Positions 14,458 through 31,844 of a stretch of 64,000 nt of DNA are shown here, in pieces (position 1 is the first letter of the stretch; every line of letters begins with the position of its first letter). Below the pieces are notes generated by a model that did not search any database, had not been told where the DNA came from, and saw only the letters and a program-made list of their open reading frames with translations. Made by a program: the position numbers and the translations under genes. The stretch is from Rhodobacteraceae bacterium UBA1943 (GTDB lineage: Bacteria; Pseudomonadota; Alphaproteobacteria; Rhodobacterales; Rhodobacteraceae): positions 2,474-66,473 of the forward strand of contig DDEX01000035.1 of assembly GCA_002336845.1 (NCBI GenBank), read 5' to 3'.

Positions 14458-14473
14458 GTAACTATATGGTTAC
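14458..14473. promoter_or_regulatory. Island operator copy a: GTAACTATATGGTTAC
   Basis: Perfect GTAAC-N6-GTTAC palindrome 15 nt upstream of the ACAD start codon (minus strand). One of six related sites. Confidence 0.65.
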
Positions 14474-14550
14474 ATAATGGGGTGCTGTTCGCCGGTCAAG
14501 CGATTCCTCCGATCATTTCCCTTGCCAGACTCAGGGGCGGCTGACAGTAA

Positions 14551-14566
14551 TGCACTATATGGTTAC
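14551..14566. promoter_or_regulatory. Island operator copy b: TGCACTATATGGTTAC
   Basis: Shares ACTATATGGTTAC with copy a and AATGCACTA..TGGTTACTT with copy e. Lies 15 nt upstream of the AKR ATG at 14581. Confidence 0.55.
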
Positions 14567-14580
14567 TTATGGGGGGATGA

Positions 14581-15597
14581 ATGCTACCGACCGATCTTCG
14601 CACCTTTGGCCGCTCGGGACTGAAAGTCACCACTTTTGCCTTTGGCACCGCGCCGGTCGGCAACCTGTTCCGGCCAATTGACGACGCAACGTCCGACGCC
14701 ATGTTCCAGACCTCCTGGGATGCTGGGATCCGGTTCTACGACACAGCACCCATGTACGGCCACGGGCTGGCCGAACTGCGCACCAGCGAGAACCTTCGCT
14801 GGAAGCGGCGCGACGATTTTGTGCTGTCGTCAAAGGTCGGGCGGCGGCTGGTTCCGGCAAGGCGAGAGACGATCGATTTCACGCCCTGGACTCAGGGTGC
14901 CCCGTTCAAGATGGAGTTCGACTACACCTACGATGGCACGATGCGCGCCTTCGAGGACAGTCTGCAGCGACTGGCGCTGGAGCGGATGGACATCGTCTTC
15001 ATTCATGACATTGATGTTTTCACCCGCGGCAAGGACCAGCCCGAGGTTTTCAAGCAGGCGATGGACGGCTGCTACAAGGCGCTGGAGCGGCTGCGGAACG
15101 AAAAGGTGGTCACGGCCATCGGCGTGGGGGTCAACGAATGGGAGGTCTGCCACGAGGCGCTGAAGCAGCGTGATTTCGACTGCTTCCTGCTGGCGGGCCG
15201 CTACACCCTCTTGGAACAGGAGGCGCTGGATGCGTTCCTGCCGCTTTGTGAACAGCGCGGCGCGGCAGTGCTGGTTGGGGGCGGGTTCAACTCTGGCATT
15301 CTGGCGACAGGCGCGAAGCCCGGTGCGAAGTACAACTACGCCCCGGCGTCGGCCAGTATCATGGACAAGGTGGCGAAGATCGAAGCCGTCTGCGCCGAAT
15401 ATGGCGTTTCCCTTCCGGCGGCGGCGTTGCAGTTCGTCGTGGCCCACCCCGCCGTGCCGTCCTTCTGTGCTGGCACGCGGACGGTCGAGCAACTGAAGCA
15501 GAACCTTGCCTGGTTCAGCCAGCCGATTCCGGTTGAATTCTGGGCGGCGCTGAAATCCAGGGGCCTTCTGCGAGAGGATGCTCCGGTGCCGGTATGA
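14581..15597 (+). CDS. Aldo/keto reductase (aldose/L-fucose dehydrogenase-like)
   Basis: AKR pattern (FDTAPMYGHGLAE, ..DIVFIHD..), 338 aa. Confidence 0.85.
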   Translation: MLPTDLRTFGRSGLKVTTFAFGTAPVGNLFRPIDDATSDAMFQTSWDAGIRFYDTAPMYGHGLAELRTSENLRWKRRDDFVLSSKVGRRLVPARRETIDFTPWTQGAPFKMEFDYTYDGTMRAFEDSLQRLALERMDIVFIHDIDVFTRGKDQPEVFKQAMDGCYKALERLRNEKVVTAIGVGVNEWEVCHEALKQRDFDCFLLAGRYTLLEQEALDAFLPLCEQRGAAVLVGGGFNSGILATGAKPGAKYNYAPASASIMDKVAKIEAVCAEYGVSLPAAALQFVVAHPAVPSFCAGTRTVEQLKQNLAWFSQPIPVEFWAALKSRGLLREDAPVPV

Positions 15598-16046
15598 CCG
15601 GCCGGCTCCTGCCGGCTGGACTGCATGGCCATGCCAGCCTGAAGGCCGGTGACCGGATCGACACGGTCTCGACCCGGGTCACCGCCGAAACGATTGACCG
15701 CTTTGCAGACTTGTCCGGCGATCGCTTCGCCCTGCATATGGATGATGCGGCGGCACATGCGCTTGGCTTTCCCGCTCGCGTGGCGCACGGGCTTCTGGTT
15801 CTGTCGCTGATTGACGGGCTGAAGAACCAGGCGCTGGCGCGGCTGGATGCGGTGGCCTCGCTGGGTTGGGACATCCGGTTCAGCGCGCCGGTGTTCGTCG
15901 ATGATGAATTGCGGGCAACCTTTGCGGTGGAAACGCTTCGACCAGCCCGCGAAGGCCGTAGGATTGTGGTCTTTGCGGTAGAGGCCCGCAACCAGCGCGA
16001 CGAGATCGTCCAGCAGGGCCGAACCACACTGATGATGCGACCCTGA
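15594..16046 (+). CDS. MaoC-like (R)-specific enoyl-CoA hydratase/dehydratase
   Basis: Hot-dog fold motif (FADLSGDRFALHMDDAAA..GFPARVAHG). 4-nt overlap with the AKR gene. Confidence 0.8.
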   Translation: MTGRLLPAGLHGHASLKAGDRIDTVSTRVTAETIDRFADLSGDRFALHMDDAAAHALGFPARVAHGLLVLSLIDGLKNQALARLDAVASLGWDIRFSAPVFVDDELRATFAVETLRPAREGRRIVVFAVEARNQRDEIVQQGRTTLMMRP

Positions 16047-16048
16047 CG

Positions 16049-29912: not shown

Positions 29913-29928
29913 TGCACTAACTGGTTAC
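29913..29928. promoter_or_regulatory. Island operator copy e: TGCACTAACTGGTTAC
   Basis: Lies in the divergent gap between the binding-protein operon (start 29817, minus) and the TetR gene (30064, plus). Flanks AATGCACTA..TGGTTACTT match copy b. Confidence 0.55.
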
Positions 29929-30063
29929 TTGTTATGCCTTGGCCAAGTCAAGAAGTTTGTTCGACCTGACCACCCAAAGAATTTACATTCCGCTTTGACG
30001 AGATCGGCCCCCCGTGTGTAAACATGACGCTAACGCAAACAGCAGGGGCGGACCGGATAGTTC

Positions 30064-30732
30064 ATGGAAAGTGCTGAAAAAGGTGCGACCGAAAAGCCTC
30101 CGGCACCGACCAGGCCCCGAACCAGGGATGCCGAAGCGACCAAGGCGCGTATCCTTGACGCAGCCAAGCGCGAGTTTGCAAAAAACGGCCTCGGCGGCGC
30201 CCGCGTGGATGTGATCGCTGAAAAGGCCCGCGCAAACAAGCGCATGATCTATCACTATTTCGAGTCGAAGGAGGGTCTGTTTCAGACGATCCTGGAAAAC
30301 GCCTATGTCGATATCCGCACCGCCGAACAGAAGCTGAACCTCGATCACCTCGCCCCGAAGGAGGCGCTGGAGCGTCTGGTCCGTTTCACCTGGGACTACT
30401 ACCTGAAGAACCCAGAGTTCATCACGCTGGTGAACAGCGAGAACCTCCACCGCGCCAAGCACCTGAAGAAATCCGAGGTCGTGAAAGTTTACAGCCGCAA
30501 GTTCGTGTCGATGGTGGCAACCATCCTAGATCGCGGCGCCGCGGCGGGGGTGTTTCGCCCGGGCGTCGATCCGGTGCAGTTGAACATCACCATTGCAGCG
30601 ATCGGGTATTATTATCTGACCAACCGCTTCACGGGTGCCATCGTGTTCGAGCGTGACCTGATGGCGAAGGACGCGTTAGAGGAGCGGCTACGGTTCAACA
30701 TCGATACGATCTTACGTCTGGTGGCAGCCTGA
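30064..30732 (+). CDS. TetR/AcrR family transcriptional regulator (candidate island regulator)
   Basis: N-terminal HTH (TKARILDAAKREFAKNGLGGARVDVIAEKARANKRMIYHYFESKEGLF); 222 aa. Confidence 0.88.
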   Translation: MESAEKGATEKPPAPTRPRTRDAEATKARILDAAKREFAKNGLGGARVDVIAEKARANKRMIYHYFESKEGLFQTILENAYVDIRTAEQKLNLDHLAPKEALERLVRFTWDYYLKNPEFITLVNSENLHRAKHLKKSEVVKVYSRKFVSMVATILDRGAAAGVFRPGVDPVQLNITIAAIGYYYLTNRFTGAIVFERDLMAKDALEERLRFNIDTILRLVAA

Positions 30733-31161
30733 TCAAACGTCCCAGACAAGGCCCAACGCCCGCAGTCCCGCCTCGGCGCAGGCCACGTCTTCGGGCTCCT
30801 GCGCCCCCGAAACCCCGACACCGCCTATGACGACGCCCTGATGCACCGCCGGAAGCCCGCCGCCCCAGGGCAATAGCCGCTGCCGGGTGGACAAGCCAAG
30901 CGCCAGCGAGGGACGGGACGTCATGCGGTCGGCAAAGGCGGCAGTAGCACGGCGCATCGTTGCGGCGGTAAAGGCCTTGTCCTCGGCAAAGGACAGGATG
31001 GGGGGCGTTGCGGTCTCCATCCGTGCGGAGGCAAGAGTATGGCCCTGCGCGTCAACAACGCAGACCGCCACGGTCAGCCCCTGCCGTCTCGCTTCATCCA
31101 GCGCGGCTTCGACGATCTGGCGGGCGGTTTCGTAAGACAGGGTTGCGATCAGGCTGATCAT
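30733..31161 (-). CDS. GlcG/HbpS-like heme-binding protein (DUF336)
   Basis: 142 aa. Ending ..[33 protein letters not shown] is typical of DUF336. Confidence 0.75.
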
Positions 31162-31817
31162 TTGGCCATCTCCTCCCAGTCGAGAAGGATGAAAGGTTCT
31201 GTGATCTGTCGCGCCATGATGGCCGCATAGATCGCTGCAGGGTCATTCGGTATGGCGCGGTGGATCAGCCCATCAAGCGGGATCTGCCCTTCGGCCAGCC
31301 ATTGCAGCGAGCGTTCGAAGCCGCCAAAAATCGAGTGAGGCGCGTTGTTGTATCCCTCCAGCAGTTCTTCCCATTGGAAGCTGCGGCCATGCATCGGCAG
31401 TTCCCACTCCCACCCTGATCGCAGAGTGACATGGTTAAAGAATACCGCTTGGGTCACGTCATGCGCCGAATGGTCGGAACACTTGCGCCAAGGCACACCG
31501 CGGATCAGGTCGCTGCCCTTCTCACCGATCATGATGGTCGGCGCGTTCGTGTCGGACGAATTGATCCGCGGCCAGTTCGCGGCATCGCACACTCTTAGCC
31601 CGTCGATCCCCCGCAATCGCAGATGCGGATCGACCACCGCCATCTTATCATCACCCAGGAGGCCATCACTTCCGTGGAAGGCGTCGGCAAACAGCTCATT
31701 CCCCTCGGCACGGCGGAAATACGGCAGGACGGAGGTGGTGGAGTCTTCGCTCAGCCGACCGGCCAGAACACTGCCAGACGACCCGCCACCGATGATGATG
31801 AAATTCACGTCCCGCAT
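31158..31817 (-). pseudogene. Chimeric gene fossil: internally deleted GMC oxidoreductase fused in frame to the C-terminal end of a medium-chain-dehydrogenase-like protein
   Basis: FAD motif [20 protein letters not shown] joins directly to ..YFRRAEGNE.., then to the GMC C-terminus ([39 protein letters not shown]). ~400 aa of a normal GMC enzyme are missing. ~110 extra aa follow, resembling an MDR C-terminus. Confidence 0.6.
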
Positions 31818-31828
31818 GGGTCCATTAT

Positions 31829-31844
31829 GTAACTAGTTCGTTAC
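31829..31844. promoter_or_regulatory. Island operator copy f: GTAACTAGTTCGTTAC (followed by TTAAG)
   Basis: Perfect GTAAC-N6-GTTAC palindrome 12 nt upstream of the fossil gene's ATG. Confidence 0.6.

Follow-up and report, generated by a model that had tools for sequence, protein, structure and literature searches.

In a 64,000-nucleotide stretch of DNA from Rhodobacteraceae bacterium UBA1943 (contig DDEX01000035.1, positions 2,474 to 66,473; G+C content 62.5%), hereafter the window, six related palindromic sites occur in the promoter regions of an island of about 20 genes, which are organised in seven site-bearing transcription units. Based on sequence comparisons, these six sites are very probably the operators of the TetR-family repressor encoded within the same island (30064-30732, plus strand). 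The sites are statistically distinct from the rest of the window, can be regained without self-training and are conserved at orthologous regulatory positions across two bacterial orders. The gene map was confirmed by Pfam, including the genes that an earlier note on this DNA had placed beside each site. The same note had named the TetR gene at 30064 as the only regulator inside the island, and this is correct for the region between 10.5 and 31.9 kb; the other regulators of the window, an RpiR-type protein (7376-8290), a histidine kinase (55896-57236) and a LacI-type protein (60903-61946), are encoded outside the island.

All six 22-mers listed in the earlier note (sites a to f) were recovered by exact match to the window at the quoted positions. 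Site a (14456-14477, plus strand as quoted; core 14458-14473, GTAACTATATGGTTAC) is located at the leftward promoter of the ACAD-SDR-DUF993-TIM operon, and site b (14549-14570, plus strand as quoted; core 14551-14566, TGCACTATATGGTTAC), which has a variant left half-site, at the rightward promoter of aldo/keto reductase 1 (AKR1) and MaoC. Site c (19987-20008, minus strand as oriented in the note; core 19991-20006, GTAACTAACCAGTTAT) is common to the divergent promoters of the CoA-transferase operon and aldo/keto reductase 2 (AKR2). Site d (24117-24138, plus strand as quoted; core 24119-24134, GTAACCGAATAGTTAC) lies at an internal leftward promoter of the aldehyde dehydrogenase (ALDH) and GMC oxidoreductase genes, in the gap between the alcohol dehydrogenase (ADH) and ALDH genes. 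Site e (29911-29932, plus strand as quoted; core 29913-29928, TGCACTAACTGGTTAC), again with a variant half-site, is found at the leftward promoter of the operon encoding the substrate-binding protein (SBP), the remaining ABC transporter subunits and ADH, and site f (31827-31848, plus strand as quoted; core 31829-31844, GTAACTAGTTCGTTAC) at the leftward promoter of a decayed GMC gene and GlcG. The sites had been described as six copies of GTAAC-N6-GTTAC with TTAA flanks. Six related sites are indeed present, but the exact sequence is found only in a, d and f (three occurrences in the window, where about 0.03 would be expected, an estimate from base composition alone), whereas b and e carry TGCAC where GTAAC is expected and c has GTTAT on one side. 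Likewise, the flanks show an A/T-rich tendency (about 73% A/T at the two positions outside each half-site) rather than a fixed sequence.

When up to two mismatches to GTAAC-N6-GTTAC were allowed, no enrichment was observed in the window (10 occurrences, 7.1 expected). Because this pattern is too loose, a symmetrised 26-bp weight matrix was built from the six window sites. With this matrix the six sites score 25.8-39.0 bits, and nothing else in the window scores above 10.6 bits. Using matrices built from the other five sites, each site was regained at 19.9-36.2 bits (a, 36.2; b, 24.2; c, 20.6; d, 33.5; e, 19.9; f, 33.6), whereas non-sites did not exceed 12.2 bits; the top score in 100 Markov-1 random windows was 15.6 bits. 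The scan detected no further copy of the motif in the 64-kb window, in agreement with the earlier statement that there is none beyond 14.4-31.9 kb, and the sequence of a look-alike at 52905-52920 (GATTACCTGCGTTAC) confirms that its half-sites are wrongly spaced.

To what extent the motif is kept in related genomes was examined by phylogenetic footprinting. A DNA-similarity search of plasmids retrieved syntenic islands, in all of which this tetR gene is present, from Paracoccus ferrooxidans, P. versutus, P. kondratievae, Sagittula, a Rhizobiaceae-like strain and Sinorhizobium meliloti, where the island corresponds to SMa1394-SMa1428 on pSymA. With the window-derived matrix, the motif was found at the orthologous gaps in all of the DNA-retrieved loci examined (5/5). 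A scan with a TetR alignment, using one genome per species, found TetR relatives in at least 590 species; in the best 80 loci, which belong to the Rhodobacterales and Hyphomicrobiales, the TetR protein is 74-94% identical. The footprinting sample comprised 85 loci (1.56 Mb) from these two orders, and the placement counts given below refer to sites of at least 15 bits. At this threshold the sample contains 176 sites, compared to 8 in a reversed-sequence control, and at 18 bits or more 160 sites remain, compared to 1 in the control.

The distribution of these sites follows the promoters. A site is present in every SBP/TetR gap (68/68, class e) and every CoA-transferase/AKR2 gap (14/14, class c), and each of the nine ACAD/AKR1 gaps harbours two sites (9/9, classes a and b). 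The ALDH/ADH gap has a site in just 6 of 54 cases (class d), which suggests that site d marks an optional internal promoter. None of the remaining co-directional or convergent gene pairs of the 85 loci has a site in its gap (0/67, 0/65, 0/63, 0/59, 0/56, 0/44 and so on), and the non-island flanks of these loci contain no sites above the control level. In loci with rearranged operons (L017, L023, L049, L056, L081 and L088) the motif relocates with the promoters. Additional sites in the relatives precede either an intact GMC gene of about 545 amino acids (aa) or a VOC-family gene of 172-198 aa, sometimes together with Zn-ADH or GlcG. The counterpart of site f in relatives is followed by an intact GMC gene, a VOC-family gene or GlcG. 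Both in the window and in the 85 loci, the sites are thus confined to promoter gaps, with the ALDH/ADH gap as the optional case, and the proposal of the earlier note that a single operator unites these genes in one regulon is strongly supported across different species. The similarity could in principle be a matter of chance between A/T-rich intergenic regions, or reflect a small dispersed repeat, and the lack of enrichment of the two-mismatch pattern is in line with this. The leave-one-out scores, the random windows, the reversed control and the placement in promoter gaps of 85 species effectively refute such an explanation, to which we attach next to no probability.

From 151 unique sites the consensus tAAgTAACyAnnTrGTTAcTTa was derived, in which core positions A4, C5, G12 and T13 are essentially invariant. 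Sites c (19991-20006) and e (29913-29928), as well as the class c and e sites of the 85 loci (L001-L085), contain in addition a nested TAAC-N2-GTTA palindrome, the dyad of which is offset by 2 bp from that of the outer N6 palindrome. The TGCAC half-site of e is kept from the Rhodobacterales to the Rhizobiaceae, which is not accounted for by a single-dimer model. Read on the other strand, the cores of b and e (14551-14566 and 29913-29928) are GTAAC-N6-GTGCA. Both therefore include AAC(N6)GTGC, the recognition sequence of the type I restriction enzyme EcoKI; this is almost certainly a coincidence, and matters only for cloning into r+ E. coli K-12.

The location of the sites relative to promoter elements was analysed next. 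A scan with an E. coli-type consensus promoter returned nothing at the site-bearing gaps, and conserved boxes together with published transcription start sites (TSSs) were used instead. Alignments of the gaps revealed conserved CTTGAC-like boxes that point towards the cores. The distance between CTTG[AC] and the 16-bp core peaks at 17-18 nt for class e and at 21-29 nt for the other classes, with an estimated background of about 0.6 per bin. If these boxes are −35 elements followed by a spacer of 17-18 nt, the −10 hexamer would fall on or just before the edge of the core and transcription would start inside it.

In the window, the inferred −35 box of the ACAD operon is CTTGAC on the minus strand (GTCAAG on the plus strand, 14495-14500), located 21 nt from core a and conserved in the relatives. 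For AKR1-MaoC it is CTTGCC (14521-14526, plus strand), 24 nt before core b, a geometry like that of SMa1403 in S. meliloti. Site c is flanked by two inferred promoters, that of AKR2 on the plus strand (TTGGCT, 19981-19986; TATAAA, 20004-20009) and that of the CoA-transferase operon on the minus strand (CTTGAT, the reverse complement of ATCAAG at 20033-20038; CTATCT, the reverse complement of AGATAG at 20009-20014). One operator would therefore serve two divergent promoters, and its GTTAT half would double as the −10 hexamer of AKR2. At site d, the inferred −35 box TTGACA (minus strand; TGTCAA at 24140-24145) is only 5 nt from the core, so that the operator would fill the spacer. The box of the SBP-ABC-ADH operon, CTTGAC (minus strand; GTCAAG at 29947-29952), is 18 nt from core e and kept in nearly all loci, and that at site f, CTTGAG (minus strand; CTCAAG at 31866-31871), is 21 nt from core f.

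These assignments could be compared to the TSS map of S. meliloti 1021 (Schlueter et al. 2013, PMC3616915, supplements), in which SMa1403, the AKR1 gene, starts at 771004 from the promoter CTTGCG-N18-GTATTA. The core of the S. meliloti site b covers 770998-771013; thus, the TSS coincides with core position 7 and the −10 hexamer GTATTA abuts the core. By analogy, transcription of AKR1 in the window is predicted to start at about 14557. We had also considered CTATAT, the spacer in sites a and b, as a −10 hexamer, and rejected it since the mapped S. meliloti −10 hexamer is located just upstream of the core. Taken together, the operators overlap conserved core promoter elements in the window and, in the S. 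meliloti ortholog, the TSS. The −35 geometry and the start inside site b point to operators that cover the −10/start region, and hence to promoter occlusion. The earlier note had suggested tight repression by either a roadblock or occlusion. Occlusion agrees with these data, while a roadblock close to the ribosome-binding site does not, given the −35 boxes 17-29 nt away and the S. meliloti TSS within site b. The 22-mers of a, b and f had also been placed 12-15 nt from the start codons. They are indeed close, but the gaps are 12, 10 and 9 nt, respectively (14, 14 and 11 nt when measured from the 16-bp cores), and this closeness is explained by short 5′ leaders.

With three sites only 9-14 nt from start codons and a 5-bp stem that could form, the palindromes might instead act in the RNA, as hairpins in the 5′ untranslated region that affect translation or stability. 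However, the S. meliloti start inside the palindrome leaves part of the hairpin out of the transcript, site c is shared by two divergent genes, and the stem would be short and A/U-rich. Moreover, the island had no match in Rfam, and it is the sequence (invariant A, C, G and T positions) and not the pairing that is conserved. We consider a role in RNA extremely improbable. Only slightly better placed is the idea that the motif belongs to the promoter proper, for instance as the site of an alternative sigma factor. The motif is always at promoters and overlaps the −10 region, and the −10 hexamer is probably formed in part by the A/T-rich flank. A sigma element needs a fixed register, though, and here the offset to the −35 box varies from 5 to 29 nt; the motif is dyad-symmetric and used in both orientations, ordinary CTTGAC-type −35 boxes are present alongside, and the tetR promoter of the same loci lacks the motif. 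This makes a sigma-factor site very unlikely.

The operon table of the same study (PMC3616915) lists no TSS for the operons of SMa1400, SMa1409 and SMa1427, while tetR (SMa1428) has one. These gaps fit repression in laboratory media, for which they are weak evidence. They also speak against TetR acting at these sites as an activator or dual regulator, since tetR itself is expressed while three site-bearing operons have no listed start. At all promoters the operator lies over −10/+1, a repressing position, and no upstream placement of the class I or class II type was seen. In favour of activation, the site-bearing SMa1403 promoter is transcribed in S. meliloti laboratory cultures. A few TetR-family proteins do activate transcription. 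On balance, we regard activation as quite unlikely and repression as the probable mode of action.

The proposed repressor matches TetR_N (PF00440; residues 30-74, E = 1.7e-13, 50.5 bits against a cutoff of 24), which places it in the TetR family, and TetR_C_29 (PF17938; residues 98-216, E = 3e-43), a C-terminal ligand-binding and dimerisation domain. Its full-length sequence matches in the PDB are TetR-family structures, with the uncharacterised 3npi as the best (E = 7e-22); RutR and HlyIIR reach only about 1e-9. No NCBIfam equivalog matched the protein at cutoff. Orthologs, including SMa1428 of S. meliloti, are 71-94% identical across the two orders, and their helix-turn-helix region is nearly invariant. 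It is a matter of speculation that a conserved basic N-terminal arm (RPRTRDAEAT) contacts the minor groove.

Site e had been noted between the ABC-ADH operon and the TetR gene. This position is correct, but the site serves the ABC promoter, and tetR has a separate promoter about 65 nt further on. In the window this is TTTGAC-N18-GTAAAC on the plus strand (TTTGAC, 29994-29999; GTAAAC, 30018-30023; together 29994-30023), 65 nt past core e, and the relatives conserve gCTTTGACg-N17/18-GTGTAwg between site e and tetR. In S. meliloti, the TSS of SMa1428 was mapped to 786766 with the promoter TTTGAC-N18-GTATGA (PMC3616915), and this promoter begins 68 nt past the core of site e (786729-786766 in our S. 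meliloti record, L086). No operator was found on the tetR promoter in the window, in most relatives or at the mapped SMa1428 TSS, so that site e is assigned to the ABC operon, autoregulation of tetR is not supported and the layout is not that of an autoregulated cassette. TetR is probably made constitutively. In Paracoccus and Labrys an extra inverted site is present between the ABC and tetR promoters.

Several observations connect the motif to TetR. Every locus with the island also has tetR, even where retrieval relied solely on DNA similarity, and no other regulator recurs near the island. Furthermore, a paralogous island in S. meliloti Ak57 (L087, CP090106.1, 3653564-3683117) has a LacI-family regulator in the place of TetR; its other products are DUF993, an AFR-like reductase, a CoA-transferase sharing 69% identity with that of the window, enoyl-CoA hydratase (ECH), ALDH, two GMC proteins, SDR, glycerate kinase and a CUT1 ABC transporter. 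A matrix scan of this island did not detect the GTAAC-N6-GTTAC motif (maximum 9.1 bits); the best match is a LacI-type palindrome, TTGGAACGTTCCAA, at about 11880-11895, upstream of the lacI gene. The enzyme logic of the two islands is the same, and the pathways are probably related, whereas the regulator is LacI-type and the ABC transporter belongs to a different type.

Paralogs of TetR in other surroundings were informative as well. Among plasmid-borne homologs, the identity falls from 74% (orthologs) to 55%. The paralogs of A. vitis and R. lusitanum (52-55% identical) face an unrelated CUT1 ABC operon, and each divergent gap contains one strong site, ATAAATAACGAAATGGTTACTTTGT at 26.4 bits in one case and a site of 23.2 bits in the other. 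Their recognition helix reads INKRMIYQYF, compared to ANKRMIYHYF in the island TetR. More distant paralogs (36-41% identical in alignment A2) are encoded by shikimate/quinate genes in Rhizobium, Pararhizobium and Ralstonia; there, the palindrome is TGTACkAACTAGTwCGTA and the helix T(S/T)KRMIYYYF. These palindromes are located at L090:7793-7815, L092:5792-5814 and L093:9621-9646, with genes for shikimate dehydrogenase, dehydroquinase and TRAP or MFS transporters as neighbours, and the TetR_C_29 paralogs beside them may control an undescribed quinate/shikimate regulon. In Tistrella mobilis, the paralog on pTM2 (L094, 37% identical; helix VNKQLVYHHF) has ATCAAC-N6-GTTGAT and GTCAAC-N6-GTTGAC on either side (5889-5908 and 6606-6625), and here the same palindrome architecture is kept while the outer bases have changed in step with the recognition helix. 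The operators in the paralog gaps were missed by an inverted-repeat search because their arms are short, and were found by eye and with the matrix. All these paralogs belong to the same subfamily (36-55% identity in alignment A2) and share the divergent layout and nnAAC-N6-GTTnn next to a CTTGAC-like box; they differ in their target genes, in the outer half-site bases and in the recognition helix. The same or co-varying palindromes beside paralogs in unrelated contexts imply that the motif family follows the regulator, both in where it occurs and in how it changes, rather than the island genes. The paralog series also constitutes a small natural data set that ties changes of the recognition helix to changes of the operator in the TetR_C_29 subfamily.

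A different transcription factor, encoded elsewhere, might bind the motif, with TetR regulating something else or only part of the island. The tetR promoter lacks a site and the loci were mainly selected through TetR homology, both of which would be compatible with such a factor. Against it stand the absence of any other regulator consistently near the island, the lack of the motif in the LacI-controlled paralogous island, and the paralogs in unrelated contexts, whose divergent gaps contain the same palindrome or a co-varying one. We therefore consider another factor unlikely, although less so than the other alternatives. The earlier note had proposed TetR as the binder by inference, and co-occurrence of tetR with the island, the motif-free LacI island and the paralog motifs all support this, still at the level of inference.

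Most likely, one TetR homodimer would bind each 16-bp imperfect palindrome, GTAACyA-NN-TrGTTAC, with its A/T-rich flanks. Centre to centre, AAC and GTT are separated by roughly one turn of the helix, a spacing that suits a single TetR homodimer; two dimers per site would be a less likely arrangement. Since each operator would overlap a sigma-70-type promoter at its −10 hexamer, its start or both, the bound repressor would block RNA polymerase at seven promoters that control about 20 genes. By analogy with other catabolic repressors of the TetR family, a substrate or intermediate of the pathway, such as a sugar-derived acid or a CoA ester, would bind to TetR_C_29 and free the DNA.

Some points weigh against this model. 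The nested TAAC-N2-GTTA dyad at c and e does not fit a simple one-dimer arrangement, and the half-site is degenerate at b and e. The promoter elements are weak matches, anchored by two TSSs of a single distant ortholog, and detection of the SMa1403 TSS under laboratory conditions indicates that repression is incomplete in S. meliloti. A tetR gene without an autoregulatory site is less common among divergently arranged TetR regulators. Because most loci were fetched via TetR homology, finding tetR and motif together is in part a product of the sampling. This bias is reduced by the loci retrieved through DNA similarity, by the island under LacI control and by the set of paralogs, although these are few in number. 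As the sites in the relatives were chosen with a window-seeded matrix, the consensus is somewhat biased. Finally, no paper naming SMa1428 or its neighbours was found in a search that did not extend to RegPrecise and subscription journals.

The mechanism is conventional, and the layout is that of a classical local repressor except for the operator-free promoter of the regulator. Classical local repressors of catabolic and efflux operons in the TetR family include TetR with tetO, QacR with IR1, the acyl-CoA-sensing KstR2, PaaR, and FadR of the Bacillus/Thermus type. The island TetR resembles them in its TetR_N helix-turn-helix and C-terminal ligand domain, in being divergent from a regulated operon, in palindromes of 16-22 bp over −10/+1, and in having several operators that join a multi-operon catabolic regulon. 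As in the acyl-CoA-sensing members, the enzymes of the island handle acyl-CoA, which makes a CoA ester plausible as effector. In contrast to these repressors, the island TetR has no close characterised relative, a different half-site and an operator-free promoter of its own. McbR and AmtR of Corynebacterium, TetR-family global regulators of sulfur and nitrogen metabolism, respectively, have operators of the types TAGAC-N6-GTCTA and CTAT-N6-ATAG. These also consist of inverted half-sites of 5 bp that are 6 bp apart and repeated at many promoters of one regulon. Half-site, clade and role are different, however, the island TetR being a putative local repressor, and the likeness is thus one of architecture and not a sequence relationship. 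As far as found, the GTAACyA half-site is new among operators of the TetR family. Literature searches returned no relevant paper on DUF993 or this operator, and combining the motif letters with TetR gave only noise.

The seven transcription units are as follows. Unit 1 (10533-14443, minus strand) comprises ACAD, SDR, DUF993 and a xylose-isomerase-like TIM barrel, the genes of which abut or overlap. AKR1 and the MaoC-like hydratase form unit 2 (14581-16046, plus strand), while unit 3 (16049-19962, minus strand) encodes the CoA-transferase, ECH, Dabb and a MOFRL/glycerate-kinase-like protein. AKR2 alone makes up unit 4 (20047-20916, plus strand), and unit 5 (20976-24075, minus strand) consists of ALDH and the GMC oxidoreductase. 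Unit 6 (24155-29850, minus strand) encodes a sugar-type (ribose-type) ABC transporter (SBP, permease, ATPase, permease) and the Zn-dependent ADH. Unit 7 (30733-31817, minus strand) contains a remnant of a GMC oxidoreductase gene (31158-31817) and a GlcG/HbpS-like gene (30733-31161). The longest-frame starts of the GMC gene of unit 5 (20976-22649, minus strand; 71-nt overlap with ALDH) and of Dabb (17305-17697, minus strand; 80-nt overlap with ECH) probably lie upstream of the true ones; homology of the GMC protein begins at about residue 25.

The 219-aa open reading frame (ORF) at 31158-31817 on the minus strand was identified as a decayed GMC oxidoreductase by comparing its translation to an intact homolog, which showed in-frame internal deletions. 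The N-terminus with the FAD motif, middle and C-terminal pieces are fused in frame and followed by an unrelated tail of about 110 aa. A VOC-family assignment of this ORF was rejected in favour of the GMC remnant, and relatives have an intact GMC gene of about 545 aa in its place. The promoter, together with operator f, has stayed intact, and GlcG is presumably still expressed from it.

The gene content suggests import of a monosaccharide-like compound, its oxidation by Zn-ADH, GMC, ALDH and the AKRs, CoA transfer, β-oxidation-like steps by ACAD, ECH, MaoC and SDR, and a glycerate-kinase-like end. The SBP is nearest to binders of the allose/ribose type; its nearest structure is 2rjo, the name of which is uninformative. 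For ten island proteins no equivalog-level NCBIfam name was obtained at cutoff. A deoxyribonate/glyceryl-CoA route with CoA intermediates that ends in glycerate kinase has been described (Price et al. 2019, PMC6365646). We did not adopt this route as the function of the island; it is alike in logic, but relies on different enzymes and does without a TetR, which leaves it as an analogy. The GapMind paper makes no mention of S. meliloti or of SMa genes. Tentatively, and with less confidence than in the operator assignment, the island may encode an uncharacterised, widespread pathway from a sugar or polyol derivative via an acid, CoA transfer and β-oxidation-like steps to glycerate, with TetR sensing a CoA ester or another intermediate of this pathway, and the TGCAC half-site and nested dyad providing two registers, or a dimer pair, that tune the promoters.

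No substrate, curated enzyme assignment or publication was found for the island, which many Rhodobacterales and Hyphomicrobiales, among them the model symbiont S. meliloti, carry in conserved form on their plasmids and chromids. The operator consensus, the seven promoters and the one proposed repressor amount to a testable regulatory map of about 20 genes. The repressor would moreover offer a handle on the pathway, as its loss should switch the island on and screening for release from DNA should reveal the inducer.

Elsewhere in the window, site f is about 530 nt upstream of a gene for a 2506-aa protein, a neighbour that is not kept in the relatives. This protein has 16 DUF7507 repeats and DUF11 and is probably a giant surface protein; together with a following 1206-aa ORF without Pfam match it occupies 32381-43518 on the plus strand. 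A second sugar cluster at 44280-50342 (minus strand; SBP, permease, ATPase, Gfo/Idh/MocA oxidoreductase and a long TIM-barrel protein) is free of the motif, as is the region of the LacI regulator and another SBP at 60903-63152. At the other end of the island, the genes of the electron-transfer flavoprotein, etfAB, are found directly past the TIM-barrel gene in Paracoccus, the Rhizobiaceae-like strain and S. meliloti (SMa1389/SMa1391; L001, L003 and L004), in keeping with the ACAD step. The corresponding place in the window is taken by a GNAT gene (9516-10226) and a gene of the enolase superfamily.

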